Source: Thermoanaerobaculia bacterium
Lineage (GTDB): Bacteria > Acidobacteriota > Thermoanaerobaculia > UBA5066
Assembly: GCA_963816185.1 (NCBI GenBank)
Contig: CAWFJJ010000028.1
Location: forward strand, 192,001 to 256,000
DNA length: 64,000 nucleotides
Direction of reading: 5' to 3'
Under the pieces are notes generated by a model. It had not been told where the DNA came from and did not search any database. It saw only the letters and a program-made list of their open reading frames with translations. The position numbers and the translations under genes were made by a program. Of the stretch, positions 9,365-62,371 are shown one piece after another (positions within the stretch are counted from its first letter, which is position 1; each line of letters opens with the position of its first letter).

Positions 9365-11353
9365 CTACCTCACGAGCGCCGACGCGAGCGCGCCCGGCAG
9401 GTCGTCCGTGGGCACGTCCATCTCCGCGAGGGCCAGCGCAGGAAGAGGCGCGAGCCCCTTTGAAAGCTTCGGCGCACTCGTCAGCCGGGGACTCACGCGG
9501 TTCAGGATGAGGCCGGGCGCGGCGCCGCGACGTGCGAGGCCGTCGGCGAGATCCGCCGACGTCGCGAGAGCCGAGAAATCCGTGGTCGTCGCGATGAGGA
9601 AGCGGCCTGCGGTCAGGAGCCTCGCCGCCTCCCGGCTCCTTTCCTTGAAACCGTCGTAGAGGCCGTCGAAGGCGCGGAAGAAGTCCGCGAGGTCCGCGAG
9701 AAAGCCAAGCCCGAGAACGCGGTCCGCGGCGCGGAGCAGGGCCGCGCCGCCGCGGGACGCTTCGGAGAGGGCGCGCCCGAAGAAGCCGTCGCGCCGCAGG
9801 AAGAACCGCAGGGCGTCATTCTCGAGGAGAGTGACCATGCGCTCCGGCGCCGAGAGAAAATCGAGGCCTCGCGCGGCGGGAGGCGTGTCCAGGACGAGAA
9901 GATCGACGTCGGGATCCGCCGCGTGCTCGTGCAGGGCCTCGACGCCCATGTACTCGAGGACGCCGGGCAGCGAATCGACCAGGCCCGAGTAGAGACGGTT
10001 CTGGTGGATTCGCTCGAACGTCTCGCGGTTCGCCGTGCGCTGGAGCAGACGCTCGAACGTGGCTTTCGGATCGATCTGAAGCGCGAGGAGGCGGCCGCCC
10101 TTCGGGATGCCGGGCGCGCTCACTTCGGACGGGCGACTGGAGCGCGCGTCCTGCGCGGAAATGCCGAGGGCCTGGGCGAGGCGCCGTGCGGGATCGACGG
10201 TGAGGACGAGGGCGCGCCGCCCCCGGCGCGCGGCCGCCAGGCCGAGCGCGGCCGCGAGCGTCGTCTTCCCGACGCCCCCCGGACCGGTCAGAACGATCAG
10301 CTTCTCGCCGTCGAGCGCGGGGCGGAGATCGAGGGGAGGGGAACCCCGGAGAACGAAGGACGAAGAAGGGTTTCTTTTGCTTTCCCGAGCGGGTCGGCGG
10401 GCAGAAGTCGTACGGTTGCCTTCCCGCGTCGGCGACGCCGCATTTTCTTCGAAGGTGGTTAGAAAAGCAGAAAAGAACTGCGCGGCCTCCGCGGTGGCCT
10501 GGCCGCTACGCTCGCCGGAAAGGCGCCGCACGGGAGCATTCGAAGAAACGCTTTCGGTCTCCTCGTCCTCTTCGAACGGTTCGCCTTCGATCTCCGGAAT
10601 CTCGATCAGCGGAATGGCTGTGTCCCTCTTCGGCAGCGTTTCTTCTCTTCTTCCTCGTCCGACCCGATTCAGGACCACGAGAGCGGTCGTGAGGCCCGCC
10701 TTATCGGCGGCGCCGGCGATCAGCTCCTCGGTTTCTTTCGCCGCGAAATCCTCGGGCTCGGACACGACGATGAGCGCGGTGTCCTTCGACTGAGAAAGAA
10801 GCGCGTCGAGCCACTCCGCGAGCTTCCGGACCGGCCCCGCAGGGACCGTGGCGAGAAGAGTGCGGGGGAGGGCGACGAGCGAGAGCGCGTGGCCCGTCGC
10901 CGGAGCGTCCAGGACGATGACGTCGACCTTCGGCTCGCGCGCGGTCGACTTCTTGCGCTTGAAGATCTCGCGGATCTTCCCGAGGAGGAGGAGGTCGGGA
11001 AGTCCCGGCGTCGCCCGCGTGAAGAACCGGAAGGCCGGGAGCGCGAGGAGCCGGTCGCCGAGGAACTTGACCGGCGCGACCGAGGCCACGAAGTCTGCGA
11101 GGAGAGCGTCGAAGTCCGCGGTGAGCCCGTGGAGGCGCGGGGCCAGATCCACCTCGTGGTAACCGGAATCTCGTTTCTTGAAGAGTTTCGCGGCGTCCCC
11201 CCGGCCGTCCGTCGAGACGAGGAGCACGGTCTTTCCGGCGTCCGACGCGAGCTTCGCGAGCGCGGCCGCAACGGTCGTCTTCCCGACGCCGCCCTTGCCC
11301 GAGACCACGAGGAGGCGGCGGGAGAAGAGGCTTTCGAGAAGAGGCGATCGCAC
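9365..11353 (-). CDS. Duplicated ArsA/Get3-family ATPase (Rv3679/Rv3680-like halves fused)
   Basis: Two deviant Walker A motifs (GKGGVGKTT, GPGGVGKTT). DAPATGH in the first half, TVDPARRLA and DTPP in the second. A low-complexity linker joins them. Confidence 0.85.
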   Translation of the reverse strand: MRSPLLESLFSRRLLVVSGKGGVGKTTVAAALAKLASDAGKTVLLVSTDGRGDAAKLFKKRDSGYHEVDLAPRLHGLTADFDALLADFVASVAPVKFLGDRLLALPAFRFFTRATPGLPDLLLLGKIREIFKRKKSTAREPKVDVIVLDAPATGHALSLVALPRTLLATVPAGPVRKLAEWLDALLSQSKDTALIVVSEPEDFAAKETEELIAGAADKAGLTTALVVLNRVGRGRREETLPKRDTAIPLIEIPEIEGEPFEEDEETESVSSNAPVRRLSGERSGQATAEAAQFFSAFLTTFEENAASPTREGNRTTSARRPARESKRNPSSSFVLRGSPPLDLRPALDGEKLIVLTGPGGVGKTTLAAALGLAAARRGRRALVLTVDPARRLAQALGISAQDARSSRPSEVSAPGIPKGGRLLALQIDPKATFERLLQRTANRETFERIHQNRLYSGLVDSLPGVLEYMGVEALHEHAADPDVDLLVLDTPPAARGLDFLSAPERMVTLLENDALRFFLRRDGFFGRALSEASRGGAALLRAADRVLGLGFLADLADFFRAFDGLYDGFKERSREAARLLTAGRFLIATTTDFSALATSADLADGLARRGAAPGLILNRVSPRLTSAPKLSKGLAPLPALALAEMDVPTDDLPGALASALVR

Positions 11354-11446
11354 GCGGGCGAAGCCTACGCGAGAGAGGGCGATGGCCTCATAATCCGGAA
11401 CTCTAGCAGGAGGCGCCGGCTCATCGGGCCTCGCGAAAGGGATCGC

Positions 11447-11743
11447 ATGTCCGATTCACTCTTCGACCAGCTCAAAGCCCGGGGCGAGGGCTTCCTCACC
11501 GAGATCTCGAACAACCTGATGGCGAACCCGTCCTTCCTCGAGGTCCTGAAGAAAGGCATCGCCGTCAAGGAAGAGGTCGACAAGCGCGTGCTCGAGGCCC
11601 TCAAGGCCATGAGCGTGGCGACCCGCAAGGACATCACGAAGCTGGAGAAGCGCCTCGAAGAGCTTCAGGCCGACCTCGATTCGCTGAAGGCGAAAGCGTC
11701 GCCGAAGCCGCGGGCGCGCAAGGCCTCCGGGCGGAAAGGCTAG
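11447..11743 (+). CDS. Small phasin-like coiled-coil protein (98 aa)
   Basis: VATRKDITKLEKRLEEL signature resembling the PhaF/PhaI-type C-terminus, plus a basic tail. Confidence 0.65.
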   Translation: MSDSLFDQLKARGEGFLTEISNNLMANPSFLEVLKKGIAVKEEVDKRVLEALKAMSVATRKDITKLEKRLEELQADLDSLKAKASPKPRARKASGRKG

Positions 11744-11752
11744 GGCCTCGCC

Positions 11753-13905: not shown

Positions 13906-13945
13906 CCGCGGAACTTCCGGGGCCATCATTCGTATTTTTCTGCGA

Positions 13946-17471: not shown

Positions 17472-17486
17472 CTTGCGTTTCGTAAT

Positions 17487-17516: not shown

Positions 17517-17542
17517 CGCAGTCTATCCGATTTCGTCCCTTC

Positions 17543-18768: not shown

Positions 18769-18779
18769 GCGGGACAATA

Positions 18780-25993: not shown

Positions 25994-25995
25994 AC

Positions 25996-32048: not shown

Positions 32049-33104
32049 TTGCCGTCGCGGTTCGTGTTCGGGCTGAACGGCCCTGAGCTCTCGGAATCGG
32101 AGCGTGCGTTGCTCGTCGCGCTTCGGCCGCTCGGCATCCTTCTTTCTAAGCAGAATCTCCAAACGCCCTTACAGAGCACTTCGCTGCTGGAGGCATTGAG
32201 AGGGCTCTTTTCCCCGGCGCCCCTCCTCTTCGTCTCCCAGGAAGGCGGAAGTGAGGATCCGATCGGCCCGCTCCTCGGGACTCCGTGCGCCTCGGCCGCC
32301 GCGTGCGCGGCGGCGGGGACGGACCGCGTGCACGAGAACGCGTACCTCATGGGGCGCGCGGCGCGGCTCCTGGGATTCGACGTGGATCTCGCCCCCGTGC
32401 TCGATCTCGCGCAGCCGGGCACCGGGGCGGTCGTTCTCGAGGGGCGCTGCTTCGGATTTCACGCCGAGGACGTGGTGGTCTCGGGGTTGATGTTCCTGCA
32501 CGGCCTCGCGCGCGCGGGCCTCGCGACCGCCGTGAAGCACTTCCCGGGCCTCGGGCGCGCGGGGAAGGACACGCGCGTCGCGCGCCCGATCGTGGACGCC
32601 CACGACGTGGACCTCATGGTGACCGACGTCGCGCCCTTCGCGAAGCTGGCTCGCGGTGCCGACGCCGTCGTCGTGGGCCACGCGGCGTACCCGGGCTTCA
32701 CGGGTGACGACACGCCCGCGTCGTTGTCACCGAGGATCCTCGGCGTCCTCCGGGGCTCCGTGGGGTTCGAGGGCGTCGCGTTCGCCGACGATCTCGGGAA
32801 AGGCGCTCTCGACGGAACGCTCCCGGAGCGCGCGGAGCGTGCCGCCCGGGCGGGCTGCGACGCGCTCATCATCTCGGCACATAGCGATGCGCGGGAAGAG
32901 TGCGCCTCGCGCGTCGCCGCCCTGGGCGACGACCCGTCGCGCGACGCGCGCTTCGCGGCGCTACGCCGGCGCGTCGCCGACGCGCCGCGTCCGCGGTTCG
33001 ACGAGGAAACCTGGAAGCGGCTTGCGGAAGAAGCCACAGCCTTCGGCGAACTGGTGTCAAAGCCGAGAAAGAAAAGAGAAGACGGAGATTTCGGATTTTC
33101 TTAG
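32049..33104 (+). CDS. Glycoside hydrolase family 3 N-terminal domain, NagZ-like (degenerate)
   Basis: QEGG, LAPVLD, KHFPGLG, PASLS, FADDL. TTG start. The stop TAG lies inside the TTCTTAGAA motif. Confidence 0.82.
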   Translation: MPSRFVFGLNGPELSESERALLVALRPLGILLSKQNLQTPLQSTSLLEALRGLFSPAPLLFVSQEGGSEDPIGPLLGTPCASAAACAAAGTDRVHENAYLMGRAARLLGFDVDLAPVLDLAQPGTGAVVLEGRCFGFHAEDVVVSGLMFLHGLARAGLATAVKHFPGLGRAGKDTRVARPIVDAHDVDLMVTDVAPFAKLARGADAVVVGHAAYPGFTGDDTPASLSPRILGVLRGSVGFEGVAFADDLGKGALDGTLPERAERAARAGCDALIISAHSDAREECASRVAALGDDPSRDARFAALRRRVADAPRPRFDEETWKRLAEEATAFGELVSKPRKKREDGDFGFS

Positions 33105-33275
33105 AAAGGGTATTTGGGCGGAGAGCGAGGCGCCGGCGGCCTGGGCTCGCTCGGCCCGGTACCCCCTGCTCCTTCGCGCGTGAACTCGCTTCGCTCAGAC
33201 AGCACGCGCGTGCGTCGCAAGGGGCACCGGCGCCTCGTTCGCCTCTCCCCCTTCTAAGAAAATCTTCTCTTCTCT
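33094..33275. repeat. Paired TTCTTAGAA/TTCTAAGAA element, intergenic copy forming a long hairpin
   Basis: GATTTTCTTAGAAAGGG (33094-33110) and CCCTTCTAAGAAAATC (33249-33264). Inner GCGAGGCGCCGG pairs with CCGGCGCCTCGT. Confidence 0.85.
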
Positions 33276-33288
33276 TTCTAGAAATTTC

Positions 33289-33720
33289 CTAGAACGGGAC
33301 GTCGTCGTCCGCGTCGCCGCCGCCGGCCGCGGCGTCCGGCACCGCCGGAGTCGAAGCGCCCGACGCGCCGGCGGCGTCGGGACGACCGCCGAGCATCTTC
33401 ATGTCGCGCGCCTTGATCTCGGTGGCGTAGCGCTTCTGGCCCGTCTCCTTGTCGTCCCACGTGCGCGTCTGGAGCGCGCCCTCGATGTAGACGAGACGCC
33501 CCTTCGACAGGTATCGCTCGCAGATGCTCGCGAGCTTGTCGAACGCGATGACCGTGTGCCACTCGGTCTTCTCCTGCTTCTGCCCGCTGGCGCGGTCGTT
33601 CCACGTTTCCGTCGTGGCGATACGCAGTCGCGCGATGGGCACGCCCCCCGTCGTGGCGCGCATTTCGGGATCGGCCCCGAGGTGGCCGATGAGGATCACC
33701 TTGTTCACGGATCCAGCCAT
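33289..33720 (-). CDS. ssb: Single-stranded DNA-binding protein
   Basis: SVNKVILIGHLGADPE, TEWH, KGRLVYIEG, C-terminal DDDVPF. Confidence 0.97.
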   Translation of the reverse strand: MAGSVNKVILIGHLGADPEMRATTGGVPIARLRIATTETWNDRASGQKQEKTEWHTVIAFDKLASICERYLSKGRLVYIEGALQTRTWDDKETGQKRYATEIKARDMKMLGGRPDAAGASGASTPAVPDAAAGGGDADDDVPF

Positions 33721-42430: not shown

Positions 42431-43236
42431 GCGACTCCGGCGTCCTACTCGAGCGCGCGTCTGATCCGCGGATCGCGCGCCTCATCCTGAACCGTCCGGC
42501 CCGCCGAAACGCCTTCGACGGCGAGCTCGTGGCCCTCCTGCAGCGCGCGGTGCGAGAGCTGGCATCGGACGCGACGACCCGCGTCATCGAGCTCTCCGGC
42601 GCGGGCAAGACGTTTTGCGCCGGCGCCGACATCGACTGGATGAAGAAGGTCGCGGGCTTCACGATGCAGGAAAACCTCCGCGATTCGGCGGAGCTGGCGT
42701 CGCTCTTCCGCGCGTTCGACGAGCTGGCGAAGCCGATCGTGGCGCGTGTCCAGGGCGCGGCTCTGGGAGGAGGGACAGGCCTCGTCGCCGTGTGCGACGT
42801 CGTCGTCGCGGCCGAGAACGCCATTTTCGGCACGACCGAGGTGAGGCTCGGAGTGATTCCCGCCGTCATCTCGCCCTACCTCGTGCACAAGGTCGGAGAA
42901 TCGCGCGCGCGGGCGTGGTTCGTCACGGGAGAGCGCGTCTCGGCGGAAGAGGCCCGGCAGGCCGGGCTCGTGCACCGCGTCGTCCCGGAGAAGGATCTCG
43001 CCACCACAGCACGAATGGTCCTCGACGCGATCCTGCTCGGTGGCCCTGAGGCCGTGGCCGAGGCCAAGCACCTGGCGCGCGCCGTCGCCTCGATGCAGCT
43101 CCGGGACGCCACGAACATGGCGATCCAGCGCCTGGGCGAGCGACGCGCTTCGGCCGAAGGGCGAGAGGGCCTCGCGGCGTTCCTGGAGAAGCGCAAGCCG
43201 TCCTGGGCGGTGGAGCCGCCTGCGAAGAAGACGTGA
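42427..43236 (+). CDS. liuC: Enoyl-CoA hydratase (methylglutaconyl-CoA hydratase-like)
   Basis: LNRPARRNAF, FCAGADIDWM, ALGGGTGL, TEVRLGVIPA, FLEKRKP. Confidence 0.88.
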   Translation: MSDSGVLLERASDPRIARLILNRPARRNAFDGELVALLQRAVRELASDATTRVIELSGAGKTFCAGADIDWMKKVAGFTMQENLRDSAELASLFRAFDELAKPIVARVQGAALGGGTGLVAVCDVVVAAENAIFGTTEVRLGVIPAVISPYLVHKVGESRARAWFVTGERVSAEEARQAGLVHRVVPEKDLATTARMVLDAILLGGPEAVAEAKHLARAVASMQLRDATNMAIQRLGERRASAEGREGLAAFLEKRKPSWAVEPPAKKT

Positions 43237-44816
43237 CGAAGCTCCCGCGGCTCGGCCGCATTCTCGTCGCGAATCGCGGCGAGATCGCGGTGCGCGTGAT
43301 CCGCGCCTGTCGGACTGCCGGGGTCCCGGCCGTTGCGGTGTACTCCGACGCCGATCGCTCCGCGCGCCACGTCGCCCTCGCCGACGCGGCCGCGCACCTC
43401 GGCCCCGCGCCTGCGCGCGAGTCGTACCTTTCGATTCCGCGCCTTCTCGCGGCGGCGCGCGAGACCGGCTGCGGCGCCGTGCATCCCGGCTACGGGTTTC
43501 TCTCGGAGAACGCGGATTTCGCACGGGCGGTGAGGGACGCGGGACTCGTCTGGATCGGTCCGCCTCCCGAGGCGATGGAGGCGATGGGATCGAAGATCGC
43601 TGCGAGAGAAAGAATGAGGACGGCCGGAGTTCCGGTCGTCCCGGGCGCGCTCATTGAAGGATCCGAAGAGCACGAAGAGAAGAAGAGGATTTCTTCGAAT
43701 GGTAAAGAGGCTGAGGGCAGCGCAGCCGCTCGTCGAGCGGCGCTGACGCATCCCGAAACCTCTGGCACTTTCTCAGAAAATCTTTCTTCGGTTCTCTCTC
43801 TCGGTTTTCCCGTCGTCGTGAAGGCGTCTGCCGGCGGGGGCGGCAAGGGAATGAGGATCGTGGCGTGCCCCTCCGATCTTTCCGAGGCAATAGATTCCTG
43901 CCGCCGTGAGGCGCTCGCCGCGTTTGGGGATTCCACGGTCTATGTCGAGAAATACCTACCTTCGCCCCGCCACATCGAGGTGCAGGTATTCGGCGACACG
44001 CACGGGAACGTGGTCGCGCTCGGCGAGCGCGAGTGCTCGCTCCAAAGGCGCCACCAGAAGGTCATCGAGGAGTGTCCCTCGCCCGCCGTGACGCCGGAGC
44101 TTCGAACACGCCTCCAGAACGCCGCCTGCGATGCGGCGCGCGCCGTGGGTTACGTTAACGCGGGGACGGTCGAGTTCCTGCTCGAGCCCTCCGGAGAGTT
44201 CTACTTCCTCGAGATGAACACGCGCCTTCAGGTCGAGCATCCCGTGACGGAAGAGGCCTTCGGCGTGGACCTCGTCGCTCTGCAGCTCCTCGTCGCCGCA
44301 GGCGAGCCTCTGCCCGATCTCCCCACCACGCCCACGGCGCACGCGATGGAAGCGCGCGTCTACGCGGAGGATCCCGACGCGGGTTTCCTTCCGCAAGCCG
44401 GGCATCTCCTCTCGTGGGTCGAGCCTTCGGGACCGGGCGTTCGCGTGGACTCGGGCGTGACGGCCGGCCAGACGGTGGATGTTCACTACGACCCCCTGCT
44501 CGCGAAGATCGTCGCGAAAGGGCGGGACCGGGAGGAGGCACGAGGGCGGCTCGTCGCGGCGCTCGGCGAGACGATCGCTCTCGGCGTGGCGACGAATCTC
44601 TCGTGGCTGAGACGGTTGCTCGAGGCCGCTCCGGTCGTGCGCGGAGATCTGAACACCGGCCTCGTCGAGACGCTTTCGCTCCCCGCGCCTCCATCCCCTC
44701 CGGACGAGGTCTTCGAAGCCGCCTCCTCGGTTCTCTCTCGTGCCGAGCCCGGAAGAAGGTCTCGAGGCGTCCTTTCGAGTCCGTTCGAGGGGCGGTTTCG
44801 GATGGGCGGCGCTTGA
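43233..44816 (+). CDS. Biotin carboxylase subunit (MCC alpha N-part) with ~33-aa in-frame insertion
   Basis: ANRGEIA, HPGYGFLSEN, KASAGGGGKGMR, ECSLQRRHQK, EMNTRLQVEHPVTE. Confidence 0.94.
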   Translation: MTKLPRLGRILVANRGEIAVRVIRACRTAGVPAVAVYSDADRSARHVALADAAAHLGPAPARESYLSIPRLLAAARETGCGAVHPGYGFLSENADFARAVRDAGLVWIGPPPEAMEAMGSKIAARERMRTAGVPVVPGALIEGSEEHEEKKRISSNGKEAEGSAAARRAALTHPETSGTFSENLSSVLSLGFPVVVKASAGGGGKGMRIVACPSDLSEAIDSCRREALAAFGDSTVYVEKYLPSPRHIEVQVFGDTHGNVVALGERECSLQRRHQKVIEECPSPAVTPELRTRLQNAACDAARAVGYVNAGTVEFLLEPSGEFYFLEMNTRLQVEHPVTEEAFGVDLVALQLLVAAGEPLPDLPTTPTAHAMEARVYAEDPDAGFLPQAGHLLSWVEPSGPGVRVDSGVTAGQTVDVHYDPLLAKIVAKGRDREEARGRLVAALGETIALGVATNLSWLRRLLEAAPVVRGDLNTGLVETLSLPAPPSPPDEVFEAASSVLSRAEPGRRSRGVLSSPFEGRFRMGGA

Positions 44817-47264: not shown

Positions 47265-47372
47265 GAGATTTCCTAGAAGGTAAGAGGGCTTGCTGCACGG
47301 GCGTAGCGGACGCGGCGGCGGCGGTGCGGATGCAGCGTCCGGATCGCGCGCCTTCTAAGAACCTCTTCTTCT
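47265..47372. repeat. Paired TTCCTAGAA/TTCTAAGAA element, intergenic copy
   Basis: GAGATTTCCTAGAAGG (47265-47280) and CCTTCTAAGAACCTC (47351-47365), with outer purine and pyrimidine tracts. Confidence 0.82.
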
Positions 47373-48887: not shown

Positions 48888-51556
<2,669 letters not shown>

Positions 51557-51560
<4 letters not shown>

Positions 51561-52342
51561 GCGGCGTCACGGATCCCCTCGAGGGCCGGTCGTTCTCGCA
51601 CATCGAGAACGTCATCTACCTGCCGTCGACGCCTTCCACGAACGACGTCGCCAAGACGATCGTGGAGAAGATGCTCGCCGAGAGCGAGGACATCCGGCCC
51701 ACGATCATCGTGGCGGGGGAGCAGACGGCGGGGCACGGGCGCATGGGCCGAAGCTGGACCCCGCTGCCCGAGGCCCTCGCGGTCTCCATCATCGTCCCGT
51801 GGCCGGCGGGGCCGGAACGCGTCCGCCTGCCGGTGCGGGCCGGGATCGCGGTCGCGCGAGGTCTTTCCAAGGCGTTCGCCCTCGACGTGCGGCTCAAATG
51901 GCCGAACGACCTCCTCGTGAAACGCAAGAAGGTCGGCGGCATCCTCGTCGAGGCGCGCGCGAACGACGAAGGCGAAGGCTGGGCCGTCGTCGGCGTCGGC
52001 CTCAACGTGCGCGGCACACGGAAGGACCTCGATGCCCGGGGTCTGAGGGATGCGACGTCGCTCGAAGAGGCAGGCGTCACGTCGGCGAGGCTCGCTGGTG
52101 TCGCGCCGCTCTCGGCCCTCCTCGACGTCCTCGACGCGCCGCTCGGCGAGGCGGGAAGAGATCCGCTGCCGGAGGCATTCGCGGCCGTCTCGGCCCATGC
52201 GCCGGGCGACGCGATGAGCGTCATGGACGCGGGCCGATCCGTGTCGGGCGTCTTCCGCGGAGTGAACGCCGACGGCGCGCTGCGCCTTTCGACCGGGCGC
52301 GGCGAGGAGACGATCGTGTCGGGCGACGTCGTCCTCTTCTAG
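51557..52342 (+). CDS. birA: Biotin--[acetyl-CoA-carboxylase] ligase (no HTH)
   Basis: STN, EQTAGHGRMGRSW, KWPNDL, KVGGILVE, GVGLNV. Confidence 0.92.
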
Positions 52343-52355
52343 GGGCCGTTTCTCC

Positions 52356-53228
52356 GTGAACGAAACGCCGGAGTCCGGGCGCGCACCGTCCCCGGCGGAC
52401 ACGGGCCTCGACGAGGCGGGCTACGCGACCCGGATCGAGGACGCCTTCATCGCCGAGCGAGGCACGCCGTTCCTCGTGTCGGCGAAGGACTGGAGCTTGA
52501 TCCGCGGATGGCGGGAGACGGGCGTACCCGCCGACACCGTCGTGCGCGCCGTGCGCGAGACATTCGAGAGGCGCCGCGCTCGCGGCCAGGCCGGGAAGAT
52601 CTCCTCCCTCGCGTACTGCGCCGACGCCGTCACCGAGCGCTGGGAGATGGAGCGCCGGGGCCTCGTCGGGAAGGAAGATGCGCCCCCCGCGGCGCCAGAC
52701 GCGGCCGCAACGCGTGAAACGCTCGCCACGCTTGCTGCCGCGCTCCGCGCGGCGGGAGAAGAGAAGAAGAACTTCTTGCTTCGGAAAGAGAAAGAGAGGG
52801 ACCCAGGAGCGACGAGCGATGGCGGAGCGACGGGGATCGCTCTGGAAGTTCTTAGAAGGGGGTATGGGAAGGCGGACGCAGCATCTGAAGTCGGCGTTCC
52901 GGCGCACTCGGGACCCTTCGAAGAATCTTCAGGTGCTCTTCGTAAGGCTCTCGACAAGGCGGCGGCTCAGGTCGAAGAAATCTCCCCCGATCTTCCCTTC
53001 GAAGAAATCGAACACAAGCTGTCCTCTATCGAGGCATCACTCGTGCGAACGGGTCTGAAAGCAATGAATCCCTCTTTTCAGGCCCGCGTGGAAGAACGCG
53101 TCTCTTCGGCGTTGGGAGACGTGTCCCTACTTGCTCCCCACGTCGTCGAGCGCATGCGCAAGGCGCTGACGCGCCGCGAGGTGCGAGCGCTCGCCGGCTT
53201 TCCGCCGTTGACGCTGCTCCATGGCTGA
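52356..53228 (+). CDS. Hypothetical protein (DnaD-like N-terminus) containing a motif-derived segment
   Basis: IEDAFIAERG...SAKDWSLI..W...GVP pattern. Operonic position, overlapping the next start. Confidence 0.65.
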   Translation: MNETPESGRAPSPADTGLDEAGYATRIEDAFIAERGTPFLVSAKDWSLIRGWRETGVPADTVVRAVRETFERRRARGQAGKISSLAYCADAVTERWEMERRGLVGKEDAPPAAPDAAATRETLATLAAALRAAGEEKKNFLLRKEKERDPGATSDGGATGIALEVLRRGYGKADAASEVGVPAHSGPFEESSGALRKALDKAAAQVEEISPDLPFEEIEHKLSSIEASLVRTGLKAMNPSFQARVEERVSSALGDVSLLAPHVVERMRKALTRREVRALAGFPPLTLLHG

Positions 53229-54645
53229 CGTCCGTCCCGGGGAGCGCGCCGACGTGGCGATCGAGCGCGTCGTGCCGGGGGGAGACGGGCTGGCGCGCCT
53301 TTCGGGCGTCGTAACGCTGGTGTCCGGAGGACTGCCGGGAGATCGTGTGCGCCTGCGGGTGACGGAGGCCTCGGATCGTCTCGTGTCGGGCGCCCTCGAG
53401 ACGGTGCTTTCTCCCGGCGAAGCGCGCCGGCCGGAGGCTGAGATGTGCCCCCGGGCGCGGGACGGCTCGTGCGGCGGATGCGACTGGCCGGCCGCGCGCC
53501 TCGAGCATCACCGCGAGCTGAAGACGGCGATCGTCCTCGACGCCCTCCGGCGGCTCGCGGGCCTTCGTGCCGAGGCTCTTCCGGAGCCGCGCTGGCTCGG
53601 CTCCGCGCGGAACTATCGGTTGCGAAACCGCCTGCATCTCGATCGGCAGGAAAGACTGGGCTTCTTCGCGCCTCGCTCGAACACCGTCGCGAACCTCGAG
53701 ACGTGCGAGATCGTCTCGAAGGCGCTGCTCGCACGGCTGCCCGCGATTCGCGATTTCCTGAAGGGCTTCGGGGGGATGGAAGGAGAGCTCTGGACGCTGG
53801 AAGACAGGGAAGGAAAAACGCTGCTCGGCGAGATGCGGCTCGACGGGCCGCGTCTCGGCGAAGGTCATGGTCCGCTAGTTACTTCGAAGGTGAAAGACAG
53901 GGGGAGGGGACCGTTCGACGGATTTCGAGTCGTCGATGCGGGCGGCCGCATCCTGCTCTCGGACGGGCCGTCGTCCCTGTCGATCGTCGCGGGCTGCGCA
54001 TCATTCGACGTCTCCGTCTCTTCTTTCTTTCAAGGAAACCTCTACCTCCTCGACGCGTTTCTCGAAGAGGTCCGGACCGCGCTTCGCGCCGAGCGAGAAG
54101 ATTCCGCGCTTCGCGCGGTGCTTAGAAGGGAAGAGGGGCGAAGGGAAAAGGGGCGCGCCCTGCCCGTTCGCGCGCTCGACCTCTACGCTGGGGTAGGGTT
54201 CCTCACACGTCCTCTTCTCGAGCTCGTGCGCGATGCGGGCGCGGGGGACGTGACTTCAGTGGAGATCGAGCCGTCCGCGTCAAATTCCCTTTCTAAGAAT
54301 CTTTCTCTCTGGTCTTCCCAGGGCCTACCCCTTGCGCGCGCGGTCCGTGCGACCGCGGAGTCTTTTCTTTCTTCGCAGAGAGCGTCGAATTCTCCGAATC
54401 CGCCGATCGACGTGCTCGTCGCCGATCCGCCGCGCACAGGCCTTTCGCCCGCCGTGCGTGCCGGAATCCTCCGCCTCGCACCGCGGCATCTCCTGATGGT
54501 CTCGTGCGATCCGCCGACGTTCGCGCGCGATCTTTCGGCCCTGGGATCGCGTTACGCGGTCGAGCGGCTGACCCTCCTCGATCTCTTCCCCCAGACGCAC
54601 CACGTGGAAACGGTCGCCTTGCTCACGCGGCGCGAAGTCGGATAG
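53221..54645 (+). CDS. TRAM-domain RNA (uracil-5-)-methyltransferase, RlmD/TrmA family
   Basis: TRAM domain, C..CGGC, SFFQGN, LDLYAGVG, DPPR, VSCD, DLFPQTHHVE. Confidence 0.92.
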   Translation: MADVRPGERADVAIERVVPGGDGLARLSGVVTLVSGGLPGDRVRLRVTEASDRLVSGALETVLSPGEARRPEAEMCPRARDGSCGGCDWPAARLEHHRELKTAIVLDALRRLAGLRAEALPEPRWLGSARNYRLRNRLHLDRQERLGFFAPRSNTVANLETCEIVSKALLARLPAIRDFLKGFGGMEGELWTLEDREGKTLLGEMRLDGPRLGEGHGPLVTSKVKDRGRGPFDGFRVVDAGGRILLSDGPSSLSIVAGCASFDVSVSSFFQGNLYLLDAFLEEVRTALRAEREDSALRAVLRREEGRREKGRALPVRALDLYAGVGFLTRPLLELVRDAGAGDVTSVEIEPSASNSLSKNLSLWSSQGLPLARAVRATAESFLSSQRASNSPNPPIDVLVADPPRTGLSPAVRAGILRLAPRHLLMVSCDPPTFARDLSALGSRYAVERLTLLDLFPQTHHVETVALLTRREVG

Positions 54646-54654
54646 AAGCGCGGC

Positions 54655-57078
54655 ATGCGAGCGTCGTGGTCGAGGGAGGCGGGGGCGCCTTCGCTGCCCC
54701 TTGCGGGTGGCCTGGCTGCCGGAATTCTCGCGGCAGCCGTTCTCCCCGTGCCGCCAACGCACGCCCTCGGCGCCGCTCTCGTCATCGCATCGGCCGCCGG
54801 GGTCGCCCTGGCAATGCGGAAAAGCCGTGTGCGTGCTTTCGCCGGACTGATTCTCACCGTGTGCGCCGGGTTCTGGAACGCCCGCGAGCGATACCTGCTT
54901 CCTGCTCTCCGCTCGGAGTCCGAGGCGCACGCCGCGCTCGTCCGTGCGCGGGCGGCGGACCCGGCCGCCGACGGAGCTCTTCTCGAAGTCACCGGTCGTC
55001 TCGACGCACCGTGGACCACGAGCGGCTCGCTTTTCAGGACGCGGCTCGCCGTCGAAGCGGCCTCGGCGAACGGGCGCTCGCTGCGTCTGGAGTCGGGTGT
55101 GCCTCTCACGGTCGCCGGACAGCGGGACCCCGCCAGCGTCGCCGAGCTCGGTGACCGCGTGCGCGTGCGTGGCACGCTGCGCCTTCCCGAGGCGGGCGGC
55201 CCCAGCCGTTCTCCGTTCGACCTTCCCGCCGAGCCTCGGCTCGCGCTCAAGAGCGCCGCCCAAGTCGAGCGGCTCGGCCCGCCCAAGGGACCTCTCTCGC
55301 TCGTGGCGCGCGCGCACGCCGCCGTGAAGCGGCGTCTTCGCACGAATCTCGCCGGTGCCACACCCGAAACGCGCGGAGCGCTCGCGCTCCTCCTCGCCCT
55401 CGTGATGGGCGAGACGCAGGACCTGCCCGCGGCGACGATAAGCGCCTTCCGAGACGGCGGAGTCGCGCACATCGTCGCCATCTCGGGATTGCAGGTCGGA
55501 CTCGTCGCGGCGCTGCTCGGATGGCTCGCGCGGAGACTCGGCGCATCCCTTGCCGCGCGCGACTCGTTCGTGCTCGTCGCGACGGCTCTCTTCGCGATCT
55601 TCGCCGGAGGCAGGCCGCCGGTCGTGCGCGCGGCGCTGATGATCGGCCTCTATCTCTTCGCGCGCCTTCTCGGACGCCCAACCTCGGCGATGCACGTCCT
55701 CGGGTTCGCCGCGGCCGTGCTGCTCGCCGCCGATCCCTCGAATCTCTTCGACGTGGGGTTCCTCCTCACGTTCGCGGCCGTGTTCGGCCTGGCGGCGTTC
55801 GGCGTCCCTGCGTCAAGAGCCATGCGCCGGATCGGGATTCCGGGGCTCGTCGCGGACGCCCTCGGCGCAACCACGGGCGCCGAGATCGCTGTTCTCCCGA
55901 TCCAGCTCTTCGTGTTCAACGTCGTGCCCGTCGTGGCGTTCCTCTCGAACCCGTTCGTCGTGCCTCTCTCGAGCGCCTTCCTGTTCGCGGGCCTTTTCCT
56001 CCTTCCTCTCTTGCTGCTATCCCCCGCGTCGGCGGCCGTCGCGATCGTGCCGCTGAGATTCCTGTCGGATGTCCTGCTCGCGATGCTCCTGGCCCTCGAC
56101 CGGCTGCGTGCGGTGAGGGTCGTCCCGACGCCCGCGTTCGCCCTGGTCGCGATCACGGCCGCGCTCCTCGTCGTCGCGGGTTTCGCGCGGCGCCTCGCTC
56201 TCCGGCGCGCGGCGCTGGCCGGGGCGGCGGCGGTCGTCCTCGCCGTCGTTCTCGCCCGGCCGGCCGCAGCGGAGCGGGGCACGGTGGTGCTTCAGGCGCT
56301 CGACGTGGGGCAGGGGGACGCGTGGCTCCTCGTGACCCCCGAAGGCCGCGTTCTCGTGGACGGAGGGGGCAGCCCCGACCGCGCTTACGATTTCGGCCGC
56401 CTCCGGCTGGTGCCGCGGCTGACCGACCTCGGGGCGGTGGCCTTCGACGCCGTCATCCTCACGCATCCGCACCCCGACCACACGCGCGGGCTCCTCGCTG
56501 TCCTGACGTCGCTCCCGGTCGGGCGCGTGATCCTGGCCCGGGCGGCGCCCCGCAATCTCTTCCTCGACGAGTTCGAGGATGCGGCCGCGCGCCGGCACCT
56601 CCTGCTGGAGCGCTTCGGCGCCGGTCAGCGCTTCACGGCGGCGGGCCTGTCCTTCGAGGTGCTGCATCCGGGGGACGATCGATACCCCCGCGCGCGGGAG
56701 AACAACGGATCGCTCGTGCTGCGCGTAGCGCTCGCGGGGCGCACGGCGCTTCTCGCAGGCGACATCGAGGCGCTCGCCGAGAGCGATCTCGTCGCGTCGG
56801 ACCGGAACCTTGCCGCCGACATCCTGAAGGTCCCGCATCACGGGAGCCGGACGTCCTGTACGGCTGCGTTTCTCGCCCGCGTCTCTCCGCGGCTCGGGTT
56901 GATCGGCGTCGGCCGCCGCAACCGTTTCGGCCATCCGGCGGCCGAAGTCATCGAGCGACTGGCCTCCGCGGGCGTCCGGACGTTCCGGACGGATCACGAC
57001 GGGGAGGTTGCGCTCCTCATCGCGGGCCGCCGCATCTTGCCGATCTTCCCCGAGCACCTCGCGCGGGAGGTCCCGTGA
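54655..57078 (+). CDS. comEC: DNA internalization competence protein ComEC/Rec2
   Basis: AHIVAISGLQV, RAALM, GFLLTF, LDVGQGDA, THPHPDH, KVPHHGS, NRFGHP. Confidence 0.93.
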   Translation: MRASWSREAGAPSLPLAGGLAAGILAAAVLPVPPTHALGAALVIASAAGVALAMRKSRVRAFAGLILTVCAGFWNARERYLLPALRSESEAHAALVRARAADPAADGALLEVTGRLDAPWTTSGSLFRTRLAVEAASANGRSLRLESGVPLTVAGQRDPASVAELGDRVRVRGTLRLPEAGGPSRSPFDLPAEPRLALKSAAQVERLGPPKGPLSLVARAHAAVKRRLRTNLAGATPETRGALALLLALVMGETQDLPAATISAFRDGGVAHIVAISGLQVGLVAALLGWLARRLGASLAARDSFVLVATALFAIFAGGRPPVVRAALMIGLYLFARLLGRPTSAMHVLGFAAAVLLAADPSNLFDVGFLLTFAAVFGLAAFGVPASRAMRRIGIPGLVADALGATTGAEIAVLPIQLFVFNVVPVVAFLSNPFVVPLSSAFLFAGLFLLPLLLLSPASAAVAIVPLRFLSDVLLAMLLALDRLRAVRVVPTPAFALVAITAALLVVAGFARRLALRRAALAGAAAVVLAVVLARPAAAERGTVVLQALDVGQGDAWLLVTPEGRVLVDGGGSPDRAYDFGRLRLVPRLTDLGAVAFDAVILTHPHPDHTRGLLAVLTSLPVGRVILARAAPRNLFLDEFEDAAARRHLLLERFGAGQRFTAAGLSFEVLHPGDDRYPRARENNGSLVLRVALAGRTALLAGDIEALAESDLVASDRNLAADILKVPHHGSRTSCTAAFLARVSPRLGLIGVGRRNRFGHPAAEVIERLASAGVRTFRTDHDGEVALLIAGRRILPIFPEHLAREVP

Positions 57079-59307: not shown

Positions 59308-59320
59308 TGGAGGGTCTTTG

Positions 59321-60019
59321 ATGATCGTCACGGAGCTCTTCTCGAAGGTCCCTCTCTTCGAGGGAATCTCGCCGGAGGACCGTGCCGCGCTCGCGCGCGC
59401 CGCCTCGCTTCGCACGTACCGCCGCGGCGAGACCATCGTCCAGCAGGGCCAGCCCGGGGACGCGTTCTACGTTCTCGTGCGGGGCCGCGTGGCCGTCGCG
59501 ATCGTCGCGCCGGACGGGCGCGAAGTGGTCCTCAACACCCTCAGCGAAGGCGACCATTTCGGCGAGATGGCCCTCCTCGACGACGCGCCCCGATCGGCGA
59601 GCGTCATCGCCCAGGAGAAGTCGGATCTCGCGATCCTCTCGCGCGCGGTCTTCCTGGATCTCCTGAGGTCGAACTTCCTCCTGACGCGTGCCCTGCTCGC
59701 GGCTTTCTCGGCGCGGCTGCGCCGCGCCAACGCCACGATCGAAGGGCTCGCCTCACTCGACGTGAAGAGCCGGCTCGCGCGGTACTTCCGCGAGCTCGCC
59801 GCCGCGCGCGGACGAAAGGCGGGCGGGGGCTGGTCCGTCGTCGTGCGCCCCTCGCAGCGCGAGATCGCCGACACGATCGGCTCCTCGCGCGAGACGGTCT
59901 CGCGCACGATGTCGCAGATGGCCGCCGAGCAGCTCATCGTCCCGAAAGGCAAGGCCGTCTACGTCAAGCTCGACTCCCCGGAGGCCGGATCCCCGGGCGG
60001 CTCGTCCCGGACCGGCTGA
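59321..60019 (+). CDS. Crp/Fnr family transcriptional regulator
   Basis: FGEMALLD..PRSAS cNMP pocket, SQREIA..IGSSRETVSR HTH. Confidence 0.93.
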   Translation: MIVTELFSKVPLFEGISPEDRAALARAASLRTYRRGETIVQQGQPGDAFYVLVRGRVAVAIVAPDGREVVLNTLSEGDHFGEMALLDDAPRSASVIAQEKSDLAILSRAVFLDLLRSNFLLTRALLAAFSARLRRANATIEGLASLDVKSRLARYFRELAAARGRKAGGGWSVVVRPSQREIADTIGSSRETVSRTMSQMAAEQLIVPKGKAVYVKLDSPEAGSPGGSSRTG

Positions 60020-60031
60020 GGCGCCCGGTTC

Positions 60032-60622
60032 GTGGAACTGCGCCCCTGGACGCTGCCGAACTTCCTCACGTTTGCACGTCTCGCGTCGCTGCCTTTCCTC
60101 ATCATGGCGATCCTCGGCGGGCGGCACGGCGTCGCGCTCGTGATCTTCCTCGCGGCCGCGATCACCGACGTCGTGGACGGCTACGTGGCGCGCCGGTTCG
60201 GCATGGGCTCGCCGCTCGGTGCGTGGCTCGACCCCATCGTCGACAAGTTCTTCCTCGTCTCCACGTTCGTCGTCTTCGCGCTGCCTTCCACGCCGACGTC
60301 CCTCCGCATCCCGGTCTGGCTTCTCGTGCTCACGGTCTTTCGCGACGCGTTCGCCCTCGCGATCTGCCTCGTCATGTTCCTGGCGCTCGGCATTCGCGAC
60401 TTCCCGCCCTCGATTCTCGGAAAGCTCACGACGTTCCTCGAGATCTCGACCGTGGTCGCAATCCTCCTCGTGAACGTACATCGGCTGCCCGCCGTCGTCG
60501 CGACGACGTGCATGCAGCTCGTGGCGGTCTTCGCGACCGTGTCGGGGCTTCACTACTCCTGGCGCATCGTGACGCGCCTTCCGCGCCCCGCGTCCGCGGG
60601 ACCCCCCGCCCCGCGCGCGTGA
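60032..60622 (+). CDS. CDP-alcohol phosphatidyltransferase (PgsA/cardiolipin synthase type)
   Basis: PNFLTFAR, TDVVDGYVARR...GAWLDPIVDK, GKLTT. Confidence 0.9.
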   Translation: MELRPWTLPNFLTFARLASLPFLIMAILGGRHGVALVIFLAAAITDVVDGYVARRFGMGSPLGAWLDPIVDKFFLVSTFVVFALPSTPTSLRIPVWLLVLTVFRDAFALAICLVMFLALGIRDFPPSILGKLTTFLEISTVVAILLVNVHRLPAVVATTCMQLVAVFATVSGLHYSWRIVTRLPRPASAGPPAPRA

Positions 60623-60891
60623 GAGTCTTCCGGCGTGCGAGCACGGGTCCGCCTCCCGCGCTTCGCCTTCTCTCGCGTTCGGGCTGCCACCTTTGCGAGG
60701 AGATGAGGACCATCGTCGAGCCACGCGTTCGGGCGCTCGGCGGAACGCTCGAGATCGTGGACGTGGACTCGGATCCGGCGCTCGCGGAGCGGTGGGGGAA
60801 CGAGATCCCTGTTCTCCTGGACGCCGAGGGCCGTGTCGTGGCGAAGGCGCGCGACGGAGCTGCGAGGATCGCCCGGCGCTTGGGCGGCTGA
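60619..60891 (+). CDS. Glutaredoxin-like protein (DUF836)
   Basis: SRSGCHLCEE, VDVDSDPAL, IPVL. Confidence 0.85.
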   Translation: MRVFRRASTGPPPALRLLSRSGCHLCEEMRTIVEPRVRALGGTLEIVDVDSDPALAERWGNEIPVLLDAEGRVVAKARDGAARIARRLGG

Positions 60892-60910
60892 CCCGCAGAA
60901 AGGAAAAAGG

Positions 60911-61105
60911 AGCCCGAGGGGCGCCGGTTCCCCCGGACTCCGGTACACCCCGCGAGGGGCCTGCCGGCGGCGGAAATGGCTTTGCGCGTTGCTGTGCGCT
61001 GGTCCTCGGCGGCCCTCCCGAAAACCCGGGACCTCGAAGCTGCTTTCCGGACCCTGCCTGGTGCCTTTCCGGCCGACCCCGCCGTGTTTTCCGGCGCGCG
61101 GGGCT
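60911..61105 (-). ncRNA. Probable 6S-like rod-shaped ncRNA (~195 nt)
   Basis: 5' AGCCC/GCGCCGG pairs with 3' CCGGCGC/GGGCT, and further nested stems surround an asymmetric bulge. TTGACT-17-TACTGA promoter-like sequence upstream (61140-61112). U-tract downstream. Confidence 0.55.
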
Positions 61106-61144
61106 AACTAATCAGTAGGGCCGGAATCGCATGGAGTCAAGAGA

Positions 61145-61241
61145 ATAAAAGGGAAGATTTCTTAGAAAGTGGATATGCGACGCGGCAATTCGCTGCGCCA
61201 TGATTTCCTCTTTGCCTTTCTAAGAAGATCTTCTCTTTATC
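61145..61241. repeat. Paired TTCTTAGAA/TTCTAAGAA element, intergenic copy
   Basis: ATAAAAGGGAAGATTTCTTAGAAAG (61145-61169) versus CTTTCTAAGAAGATCTTCTCTTTAT (61216-61240), a ~25-bp imperfect inverted repeat. Confidence 0.85.
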
Positions 61242-61267
61242 TTTCTTCACATTGCCTTCCATGCTCG

Positions 61268-62371
61268 TCACTTTGCCGCCGGCGCGGCCACGAGGATTTC
61301 GAAGCTGCCGGCCACGATCGGTCTGCGCGAGCGCGGATTCCCGGACGTCGGCGGCGGGGGAGGCCCGAAATGCGCGGTCGCGAGGAAGATCGCGTGCGTC
61401 TTCGGGTCGAGGGCCATCGTCCGCGCTCCTTCCTTCGTCGTGAGGTTCTGGACGACGCGAAACGCGTCGGGCGAGTCCTCGTGGATGACGGTCAGGGTGC
61501 CCTCTCCGTTCGAGCTGAAGACGAGGTTCGCGTCGGGATCGAAGGCCACGGCGTCCACCCCCCTGCCGATCGGCAGCTTCGCGACGGCGCGGCCGTCTCC
61601 CGTGCTGAGGACGACGAGGACCTTGTTTCCGCAGCCCGAGAAAAGGCGCTTGGCTTTGACGTCGATCGCGAGACCGGTCGGGGAATCGCAGCCCGCGAGA
61701 GGCCAGTGCGCTTCGACCTTCAGCGTGCGCGCGTCGAACGCGACGATCTCGTTCCTGTCCTCGATGTTCACGTAGACGCGGCCCGCGAGATCGGCGACCG
61801 CGAACTCGGGTTTCCCTCCGAGCGGAAACGTGCCGGCGACGGCGCCGGTCGCGCCCTCGAAAGCCGTGACGTTCGCGGTGCGGCCGTTGAACGTGAAGAC
61901 ACGGTGCGAGACGGGTTCATAGAGGATCGCGTCCGGGTTCTCGCCGGGCACCTTGACGGTCCCGAGCGTGGCCAGCGTCTTCGGATCGAAGATCGTGACC
62001 GTGTTCGCGCGGCCGTTGCTCGTGAAACCGCGGCCGAGATCCGGAGCCAGGGCGATGCCGTGCACGCCCTCCGTGTTCGGGATCTCGCCCTCCGGTGCGC
62101 CCGAATCGACGTTCAGGACGGCGACGTGCGTGCCCCTCGAGACGTAGAGCCGCCGGGCCGAAGAGTCGACGGTGAGGTAGTCCCAGCCGCCCTCTCCGCC
62201 CGCGGCGACCGTGCGCACCACGCGATACGAGGGGTCGGCGGCATTGGCGGCGGCCGCGAAAAAGAGGAAGAGGAAGAAGACGAAAAAGGAGAGATTCTTA
62301 GAAGGGAAGAGAAAGAGAGGGAATTTCTTAGAAAGGTGAGTACGGGCCCTCACGCGCTTCAGGGTCATCAT
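61268..62371 (-). CDS. YncE/YVTN-type beta-propeller protein, secreted
   Basis: GGWDYL, GVHGIA, GFTSNG, NPDAI, GKPEF, GARTMALD repeats. Signal peptide ends AAAANA. Confidence 0.85.
   Translation of the reverse strand: MMTLKRVRARTHLSKKFPLFLFPSKNLSFFVFFLFLFFAAAANAADPSYRVVRTVAAGGEGGWDYLTVDSSARRLYVSRGTHVAVLNVDSGAPEGEIPNTEGVHGIALAPDLGRGFTSNGRANTVTIFDPKTLATLGTVKVPGENPDAILYEPVSHRVFTFNGRTANVTAFEGATGAVAGTFPLGGKPEFAVADLAGRVYVNIEDRNEIVAFDARTLKVEAHWPLAGCDSPTGLAIDVKAKRLFSGCGNKVLVVLSTGDGRAVAKLPIGRGVDAVAFDPDANLVFSSNGEGTLTVIHEDSPDAFRVVQNLTTKEGARTMALDPKTHAIFLATAHFGPPPPPTSGNPRSRRPIVAGSFEILVAAPAAK

Follow-up and report, generated by a model that had tools for sequence, protein, structure and literature searches.

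A 64,000-nucleotide stretch of a bacterial genome assembly (contig C28, positions 192,001–256,000; hereafter the window) carries repeated copies of a short DNA motif whose near-palindromic core, TTTCTTAGAAGG, contains a stop codon in one reading frame of each orientation. Copies lie between genes and within them throughout the genome. Within genes the core is intact where the frame can be read, and is substituted at the critical codon where it would read TAG or TAA. The data show that something acting on the DNA sequence keeps the copies near their consensus, overriding codon preference and altering residues of housekeeping proteins. Each copy is probably one arm of a DNA signal that is specific to a lineage, a Thermoanaerobaculia genus together with its sister genus, and that is kept under coding constraint. 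A frame rule is expected wherever a DNA word containing a stop codon is forced into genes; its value here is that of a natural experiment, in which the in-gene copies are translated, the DNA-level force competes with selection on protein and codons in housekeeping genes, and the tolerated core positions are thereby revealed.

The assembly (G000) comprises 5.09 Mb in 30 contigs with 67% GC. The host is an uncultured acidobacterium, because the closest public ValS loci all belong to metagenome-assembled genomes (MAGs) labelled Thermoanaerobaculia or Acidobacteriota.

A purine-flanked core arranged in convergent pairs

Alignment of all copies on the core resolved an arm of ∼45 nt, consisting of ∼25 nt of purine-rich sequence, then (A/T)TTTCTTAGAAGG, then (T/G)GAA and a G-rich stretch; the part 3′ of the core can be summarised as (T)GAATGG, and base composition is at background beyond about +25 nt. 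The window contains 11 occurrences of the word TTCTAAG/CTTAGAA where 0.97 would be expected, a count reached in none of 100 shuffles. Genome-wide there are 449 copies of the CTTAGAA core, and an exact 12-mer of the motif is present in 73 forward and 76 reverse copies. The density is one copy per 7–11 kb (∼450 cores, or 715 copies at a flank score of at least 18, in 5.09 Mb).

Copies were detected with a position matrix built from the flanks alone, in which the four core letters TTAG were masked and which was trained on canonical copies only. Sites with a flank score of at least 22, referred to as strong copies, number 456 in the genome as compared with 28 in the reversed genome. Poly-A rows are excluded: about 1000 spurious matrix matches came from a poly-A run on contig C10 and were dropped from every later count. 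That run covers ∼1000 consecutive positions and is probably an artefact of assembly or masking. Genes were called by our own codon-usage caller of open reading frames (ORFs), without curated annotation (3870 genes, 82% coding), and by a second, more sensitive version of it (4269 genes, 85% coding); key genes were checked by Pfam and PDB sequence searches.

The arms are mostly arranged in convergent pairs. Canonical cores with a neighbour less than 600 nt away form 87 convergent pairs versus 8 divergent ones, with a modal spacing of 72–76 nt, and there are 30 tandem neighbours of the same orientation. A convergent partner is present for 60–72% of strong copies in every class, usually at a distance of 70–200 nt, and a divergent partner for only 9 of the 456.

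Called genes contain 200 of the 456 strong copies (44%). Against 193 in-gene copies observed at a score of at least 22, codon shuffling left 0.8 and synonymous resampling of unchanged proteins left 7.5. Given these two null models, the in-gene copies are real and depend on specific, mostly rare, synonymous codons; the difference between the nulls (7.5 versus 0.8) means that the host proteins themselves are also displaced toward the motif. The motif had been held, from the letters alone, not to be random low complexity and to use codons rare for this genome, and both statements stand. TTA occurs 0.3 times per 1000 codons, and AGA, TCT and CTT make up 3% of arginine, 5% of serine and 9% of leucine codons, respectively.

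Copies are unevenly spread, with an approximately seven-fold difference in density among the large contigs (24.5 per 100 kb on C28, 3.6 on C29); the 57-kb contig C18 has none. Regional effects, foreign DNA or mis-binning of a contig could account for the unevenness. Arm orientation does not track GC skew along the large contigs. There is thus no replication-strand polarity, and a Chi- or KOPS-like polarity was rejected on this ground. A reading of AGAAGGTGAATG as a Shine-Dalgarno sequence with its start codon was also rejected, the copies being in both orientations and inside genes; the spacing would also be too short for such a pair.

The core yields to the reading frame

The forward core can be read as T TTC TTA GAA, as TT CTT AGA AGG or as TCT TAG, and the reverse core as CCT TCT AAG, as C CTT CTA AGA or as TTC TAA GAA. 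One frame per orientation is therefore closed by a stop, TAG in the forward and TAA in the reverse core. The strong copies were sorted by frame after paralogues and duplicate contigs had been clustered away, which removed 42 copies and left 414 of the 456, with the following result.

Intergenic: 222 copies, of which 145 canonical (65%), 26 TTCG, 51 other
Four permissive frames: 120 copies, of which 84 canonical (70%), 6 TTCG, 30 other
Two stop frames: 62 copies, of which 0 canonical, 28 TTCG, 34 other

The zero in the last row is circular, as it follows from the definition of an ORF. What carries weight is the placement of the other copies. Tabulating variant against frame for the coding copies of the genome, as the sequence-only reading had proposed, placed 62 of the 98 non-canonical in-gene copies in stop frames, where one third would be expected (binomial p=1.3e-9). 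Moreover, the stop frames hold 62 of all 182 in-gene copies, that is, one third and hence no deficit, while filtering alone predicts ∼21. The more sensitive gene calls gave the same table with 223 intergenic, 144 permissive-frame and 74 stop-frame copies, again with no canonical core in stop frames.

The sense neighbours at the stop-frame codon are mostly TCG or TTG, and GAA or AAA; among the stop-frame cores classed as other, TTTG, TGAG and TGCG prevail (table before paralogue removal). The substitutions fall on one or two central positions of the core, which are also the most variable between genes. TTCG accounts for 45% of stop-frame copies, 12% of intergenic and 5% of permissive-frame copies; it is not exclusive to stop frames, and its presence in the latter two classes makes the substituted position the most tolerant one. 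The sequence-only reading had staked its case on this TTCGAA variant not being equally common elsewhere or devoid of pairing and flanks. Neither condition for refutation was borne out. In addition to the frame bias just given, 115 of the 287 TTCTTCGAA sites (40%) carry motif flanks at a score of at least 18, and a convergent partner accompanies 67 of 111 non-canonical in-gene copies as compared with 60 of 89 canonical ones.

The motif's own stop codon ends 25 of the 4269 called genes, among them the GH3 gene at 33102, showing that the motif TAG or TAA is used as a gene stop where truncation of the protein is tolerable. Purifying selection against nonsense is what the frame effect amounts to, and the effect shows, as judged from sequence, that the in-gene copies are translated.

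Copies of the motif in the window

The example sites cited by the sequence-only reading are all present as it described them. Canonical cores stand in permissive frames with rare codons at 52851 and 54121 (LRR), at 32142 and 54289 (LSK) and twice in a YncE-like gene; substituted cores stand in stop frames in the biotin carboxylase gene (43691, ISSN; 43770, TFSEN), in ValS (51272, ISSK), in ArsA (VSSN and TFEEN) and at 52917 (PFEES) and 52998 (PFEEI); and the motif TAG at 33102–33104 is the actual stop of the GH3/NagZ-like gene. In order along the window, the copies are as follows.

10445–10453, minus strand: arm in the ArsA gene (9365–11308, minus strand), TTC GAA GAA (TFEEN), in the linker between the ATPase halves; weak, flank score below 14
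10539–10547, minus strand: convergent ArsA partner arm, TCT TCG AAT (VSSN), 94 nt from the other arm; weak, flank score below 14
32144–32150, minus strand: canonical core TTCTAAG in the GH3/NagZ-like gene (32064–33104), CTT TCT AAG (LSK) from 32142, permissive frame
33062–33290, no strand assigned: intergenic palindromic element between convergent genes, arms at 33100 (plus) and 33252 (minus), TAG of the left arm serving as the GH3 stop; long hairpin, z −5.25
43664–43810, plus strand: element in the biotin carboxylase gene (43233–44816), forward core TCT TCG (43693) and reverse core TTC TCA GAA (43770), both in stop frames and substituted
47272–47359, no strand assigned: intergenic pair 3′ of a response-regulator gene, forward arm TTTCCTAGAAGG at 47272 and canonical reverse arm at 47353
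51267–51290, plus strand: arm in the ValS gene (48888–51560), GAGATTTCTTCGAAAGTGGA read E-I-S-S-K-V with rare codons ATT and TCT, conserved across the genus
52851–52857, plus strand: canonical core, CTT AGA AGG (LRR), in ORF 52356–53228
52917–52925, minus strand: substituted core, TTC GAA GAA (PFEES), in the same ORF
52998–53006, minus strand: substituted core, TTC GAA GAA (PFEEI), in the same ORF; flank score 18.4
54121–54297, no strand assigned: canonical arm pair in the RumA/RlmD-like gene (53221–54645), 54121 (plus, LRR) and 54291 (minus, CTT TCT AAG from 54289, LSKN)
61138–61258, no strand assigned: intergenic palindromic element just 3′ of the YncE-like gene, arms at 61161 (plus) and 61218 (minus); folds as a hairpin, z −4.0 (plus strand) and −2.6 (minus strand)
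62297–62411, no strand assigned: signal-peptide region of the YncE-like beta-propeller gene (61268–62371, minus strand), tandem canonical arms at 62297 and 62327 (plus) read PSK and LSK

The tandem arms of the YncE-like gene have their convergent partner, TTTCTTGGAAGG, at 62405, upstream of the start codon. A related-strain contig (run X4) has 8 extra nt (TTCTTCTC) at window position 47366, in the pyrimidine flank of the 47353 arm.

The gene at 53221–54645 (plus strand) encodes TRAM and methyltransferase domains with PDB matches, and the stretch between its two arms encodes the native SAM-binding motif. ORF 52356–53228 (plus strand) has no Pfam match and a weak coding score of 10.4. The low codon-usage scores of these two (14.7 for the former) are apparently due to the several motif copies inside. 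The methyltransferase gene is real, but both it and the ORF were missed by the first caller, apparently because motif elements lower codon-usage scores and supply stop codons, a practical consequence for annotation; the intergenic class consequently holds some coding sequence.

Insertion and origin in place

Comparison with homologues shows that both insertion and point substitution in place have produced arms. The clearest insertion is in biotin carboxylase, where residues 143–189 (47 residues) stand for ∼13 residues of a solved homologue, an in-frame gain of ∼100 nt. The anchor-to-anchor distance is 48 nt in three outgroup orthologues and either 39–66 nt (short form) or 129–175 nt (long form) in the genus; 9 of the 30 loci lacked the right-hand anchor and were left unaligned. 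The long form is a complete translated element with both cores in stop frames. In nine orthologous copies the stop position is always filled by a sense codon: one arm has TCG, TTG or GCG there, the other GAA, AAA, TCA or AGA. The long form is scattered on the biotin carboxylase gene tree (which omits L022, a short C-terminal match): six changes are needed, at least three of them forced by well-supported branches, and the gene tree may differ from the species tree. The scatter would fit an old insertion followed by repeated internal deletions. Locus L010 (G008, C1:73184–77275) has a duplicated forward arm, a frameshift that puts the gene halves in different frames and a stop within the element; it might represent a pseudogene or split gene, or reflect an error of assembly.

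Other arms replace native residues at equal length. The ValS arm E-I-S-S-K-V (GAGATTTCTTCGAAGGTG) is found in all anchor-recovered genus sequences except L104, which has a 4-nt length difference, and outgroup ValS reads V-V-A-P-K-V at the same length, with no indel. Of seven arms compared with solved homologues, six are gapless, namely both GlmU arms, both RimO arms, the RfbB reverse arm and the RumA-like reverse arm; the seventh, the RfbB forward arm, sits in a 10-residue insertion. By our own reading of the sorted list of 79 in-gene pairs, about a third have a non-coding-like interior and more than half enclose normal conserved coding sequence.

Interiors are seldom shared: 184 of 212 paired elements have an interior without any relative. 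Nine paralogous Ser/Thr kinases share the position of a motif pair within the kinase domain (LPEEFFEGEE ... YSFEEIP), with 91–95 nt between the arms, and outside this group related interiors unite two small families (8 and 4 members). The kinase paralogues mostly have TTCG cores although their forward arm reads in a permissive frame. Upstream of valS, elements of ∼135 and ∼190 nt in the same spacer are present or absent among close species, representing two independent gains with unrelated interiors. No target-site duplication was seen by eye at the two junction sets examined there; no systematic search was made. RAYT (Y1 transposase, PF01797) had no match in G000, which is 94.9% complete, and was found in 6 of 14 control genomes; other transposase families were not searched. 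The possibility that the elements are invertible segments (intragenic invertons), suggested by the inverted repeats on either side of short in-gene stretches, found no support: orthologous biotin carboxylase interiors all have the same orientation. In contigs of related DNA runs (X1–X4, short and of low depth; the best of 15 runs contains 0.37 of the sampled words), none of the joints listed coincided with an element.

The kinase paralogues are located as follows.

C23:2637, C23:5306, C24:602901, C24:616383, C24:620206, C5:136943, C4:8676, C28:51685, C24:360208

Conservation of the arms across species

Of the 662 conserved degenerate columns in an alignment of 20 ValS sequences of the genus, only 12 retain codons ending in A or T in 70% or more of the sequences, and these include the ATT (75%) and TCT (90%) of the motif. 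Such columns cluster near degenerate motif copies in the C-terminal part of the protein. The ValS arm is conserved although it is solitary, lacking a convergent partner. Two motif-like stretches in the same region, at window positions 51198–51220 and 51340–51380 (CCCCTTTCAAAGGAAATAC and GAGATTTCTTCTGAAGA), coincide with the cluster of conserved A/T-ending codons at residues 771–803.

The biotin carboxylase element was compared over nine species (L010 and L022 omitted). Overall identity of its two arms is 0.89 and 0.85. At third codon positions the arms reach 0.90 and 0.88, whereas the flanking gene has 0.61 and the interior of the element 0.56. Synonymous-site conservation across orthologues, which the sequence-only reading had named as a further check, therefore supports, at these two loci, upkeep of the DNA word itself.

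Distribution among related genomes

The exact 12-mer is present in 28 of 28 genomes of the genus, at 21–210 copies each, and in 7 of 8 genomes of the sister genus, at 1–16 copies; the paired architecture is also seen in a sister-genus genome (G039). It was not found in 27 genomes of eight other genera of the family or in 12 genomes of two other families (including G019 and G024), the genomes searched being samples of their groups. A 16-mer of the motif occurs in at least 120 viral contigs, with a single match in each and no multi-copy contig among the matches listed, and these matches were taken as chance. Literature searches on motif strings gave only unrelated eukaryotic or viral papers among the matches listed, and no account of such a motif in Acidobacteriota or Thermoanaerobaculia was found in the literature searched.

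Folding and independence of the arms

Long hairpins form in intergenic elements (z −4.0 and −5.25 relative to shuffles), while the two in-gene elements tested fold no better than shuffles (z −1.5 and −0.07). In spacers between co-directional genes, pairs are nearer the 3′ end of the upstream gene (50 versus 27), about half of them within 20 nt; spacers between convergent genes show no enrichment. An intrinsic terminator would be a GC-rich hairpin with a U tract behind it at the 3′ end of a gene; the intergenic pairs do fold well and lean to 3′ ends, but 44% of copies lie in genes. Hairpin covariation was rejected: in intergenic pairs the core state of one arm does not depend on that of the other (odds ratio 0.76, p=0.67). 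Because the core states are independent, in-gene elements fold poorly and the ValS arm is kept without a partner, each arm would seem to be read on its own.

Other repeats and neighbouring genes

A second repeat family has a conserved ∼200-nt palindromic interior (GTCAAGGGCGCGC...GACCCTTGAC) between motif arms, at no fewer than eight places.

C24:143240, C24:151952, C24:525673, C25:315226, C25:499754, C30:539969, C14:32942, C14:41641

Five loci of this family had no Rfam match at threshold; one match to mir-786 at 35 bits (cut-off 93) was taken as chance. In the window, Rfam at the gathering score returned two tRNAs only, and no family matching the motif elements. The C14:41641 element is 100% identical over 212 nt to C24:143240, and C14:32942 and C24:151952 share 94% identity; in the MAG, C14 may represent a duplicated contig or an alternative haplotype. 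Tandem GGATTTC units lie beside the arms at some loci, and the arm flanks seem to vary by slippage.

The motif-rich stretch 52300–54300 adjoins a ComEC gene (54748–57078, plus strand; 776 residues) with a 'Competence' domain (PF03772, E 1e-49) at 55399–56184; DprA is encoded on contig C29.

Explanations of the motif

Our preferred explanation is that a lineage-specific protein recognises each arm as double-stranded DNA. Recognition might work through selection for some function, in organising the chromosome or in DNA handling; alternatively, it might be a bias that propagates itself, for example if DNA bearing the motif were taken up or recombined preferentially. New arms do arise both through point substitutions in place and through short insertions. 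Within genes, purifying selection against nonsense opposes the DNA-level force: in readable frames the core is canonical in ∼70% of copies, as it is between genes, and in TAG or TAA frames every copy has a sense neighbour.

The sequence-only reading had left it open whether the motif is maintained by selection under coding constraint or filtered after insertion. That inference is supported: both processes act, and the data favour maintenance over pure filtering, because stop frames hold 62 copies instead of ∼21, the arms in ValS, GlmU and RimO and the reverse arm in RfbB are gapless and third positions are conserved. Insertion followed by filtering is not the whole story, since arms are conserved while interiors decay.

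Several points weigh against this explanation. The nature of the force is something we infer. The mobile or duplicative component is real, as seen in the ∼100 nt gained by biotin carboxylase, the 10 residues gained by RfbB and whole intergenic elements present in one species and absent from another. Convergent pairing, even inside genes, is left unaccounted for, as is the seven-fold variation among contigs. The long hairpins of intergenic elements would suit a role in RNA or single-stranded DNA, and the preference for upstream 3′ ends also counts on that side. Synonymous conservation concerns two loci, the gene calls are our own, the flank matrix was trained on canonical copies only, and related genomes are not independent samples.

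A bolder version, which we hold only tentatively and think more doubtful than not, is that the motif is a self-recognition signal. It would be either a system of the uptake-sequence or Chi type, the third to have evolved independently, or a paired-site code of chromosome architecture. Its reader would be a lineage-specific protein acting on convergent arm pairs, and its strength would have sufficed to rewrite codons and residues in essential genes such as valS, glmU, rimO and rfbB. If this were true, the stop-frame variants would map the core positions that the reader protein tolerates, namely the central two bases of TTTCT-TA-GAAGG.

It is unlikely that the motif is simply a non-autonomous mobile palindromic element, similar to a MITE (a miniature transposable element with inverted repeats) or an RPE, that inserts at random, loses copies with TAG or TAA and survives in stop frames only as pre-existing variants. 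Such an element would account for the in-frame biotin carboxylase insertion (absent from outgroups and partly deleted in some species), the arm-bearing insertion in RfbB, the independent presence or absence of elements upstream of valS, the long hairpins, the two small families with related interiors, and the resemblance between the intergenic and stop-frame spectra of variants. It does not explain why the arms of ValS, GlmU and RimO, the RumA-like arm and the RfbB reverse arm take the place of an equal number of native residues, nor why, by our reading of the sorted list, more than half of in-gene pairs flank native coding sequence, and it predicts only a third of the stop-frame copies observed. 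The predominance of unrelated interiors, the lack of target-site duplications at the junctions inspected by eye, the lack of a PF01797 match (the one transposase family searched) in a 95%-complete genome, and the genus-wide conservation of arms with decaying interiors also speak against it. As the sole process it is weakened by the gapless in-gene arms.

A drive of the uptake-sequence kind, one form of the preferred explanation, would make the motif the favoured substrate of the lineage's uptake or recombination machinery and have biased transformation spread the consensus, as proposed for USS in Pasteurellaceae and DUS in Neisseria, while selection on proteins sets frames and variants; taken by itself we think it improbable. 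In its favour are the origin in place, the synonymous-site signal, the sharing of the motif by two sister genera at very different copy numbers and the lack of replication-strand polarity. ComEC and DprA are present in the genome, but they are likewise present in 10 and 11 of 14 control genomes, respectively, and so discriminate nothing. The copy density is below the one per kb or so known for uptake sequences, and the drive leaves the 100-nt insertions, the GC-rich interiors and the convergent pairs at 70–200 nt unexplained. Hundreds of copies, lineage specificity, both orientations and in-gene copies do match uptake sequences in the account given by PMC2817400.

A hairpin acting in RNA or single-stranded DNA, such as a REP-like 3′ stabiliser, a terminator or a processing site, with in-gene copies as by-products kept readable, is very unlikely. 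It would fit the folding of intergenic elements, the position of pairs near the 3′ ends of upstream genes and the fact that a palindrome gives a similar hairpin in either orientation. Paired cores, however, show no compensatory relation, the in-gene elements tested fold no better than shuffles, the solitary ValS arm is conserved, pairs are not enriched between convergent genes, no Rfam family matches at the gathering score, and ribosomes would open arms that flank 60–200 nt of native coding sequence. Finally, the idea that TTC GAA GAA and TCT TCG are ordinary codon strings, products of chance, codon usage or low-complexity protein, has next to no probability: TTC and TCG are indeed preferred codons of the genome, codon shuffling would account for ∼30 of the 185 in-gene TTCTTCGAA sites and only 40% of all such sites carry motif flanks, but the motif requires the genome's rarest codons, and convergent pairing (with divergent partners so rare) and both null models refute it.

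Comparison with known systems

Lineage-wide motifs are well studied in few groups, for example Pasteurellaceae, Neisseriaceae and cyanobacteria. Uptake signal sequences (USS) of Pasteurellaceae and DNA uptake sequences (DUS) of Neisseriaceae occur at about one copy per kb, and inverted pairs of uptake sequences often lie downstream of genes. The density of the present motif is roughly ten-fold lower, its core has a stop codon in one frame per orientation, and its copies mostly form convergent pairs 70–200 nt apart, even in genes, some of them as ∼100-nt insertions with a GC-rich interior. Uptake sequences are described as present in hundreds of lineage-specific copies, in coding regions in both orientations, with reading-frame biases and altered peptides, and as arising by mutation from imperfect copies (PMC2817400). 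The motif resembles them, as so described, in being over-represented and lineage-restricted, in lying in both orientations in genes and between them, in accumulating in coding sequence by substitution in place, and in its frame preferences and changed peptides (PMC2817400).

The cyanobacterial HIP1 (GCGATCGC) is conserved in and between ORFs; its authors argue for selection at the DNA level rather than for a peptide or RNA motif, and describe its function as still unknown (PMC5861425). Like the present motif it is an over-represented, lineage-specific palindromic word whose sites in ORFs are conserved beyond the synonymous background, here at two loci. Unlike it, HIP1 is an 8-mer without a stop codon, far more abundant, and without pairs or purine-rich flanks. 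HIP1 is also reported to recur periodically along the chromosome.

RPE (Rickettsia palindromic elements) are units of ∼100–150 bp found in frame in unrelated metabolic genes and translated as an extra peptide; ten families are reported, each encoding a conserved peptide (PMC10969869). By that description the biotin carboxylase insertion looks just like an RPE. Here, however, 184 of 212 interiors are unique, many arms come without insertion, and the conserved part is a DNA word in all frames and not a peptide. Presence and absence at orthologous sites is shared with MITE and RPE, whereas sequence common to the whole element and a length gain in every host protein are not.

REP and BIME are high-copy palindromic units in alternating orientation with variable linkers, which are reported to bind several proteins (PMC2817692). 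The motif shares the palindromic units, and its intergenic copies lie near gene 3′ ends. REP sequences, however, are extragenic by definition while 200 of 456 copies here are in genes; no RAYT (PF01797) was found; and the arms are AT-rich with purine tracts and not GC-rich stem-loops.

Through the motif a new specificity of DNA binding or DNA uptake could come to light in an abundant uncultured soil lineage. Its paired palindromic architecture is unusual, combining features of uptake sequences, of HIP1 and of RPE and BIME elements.

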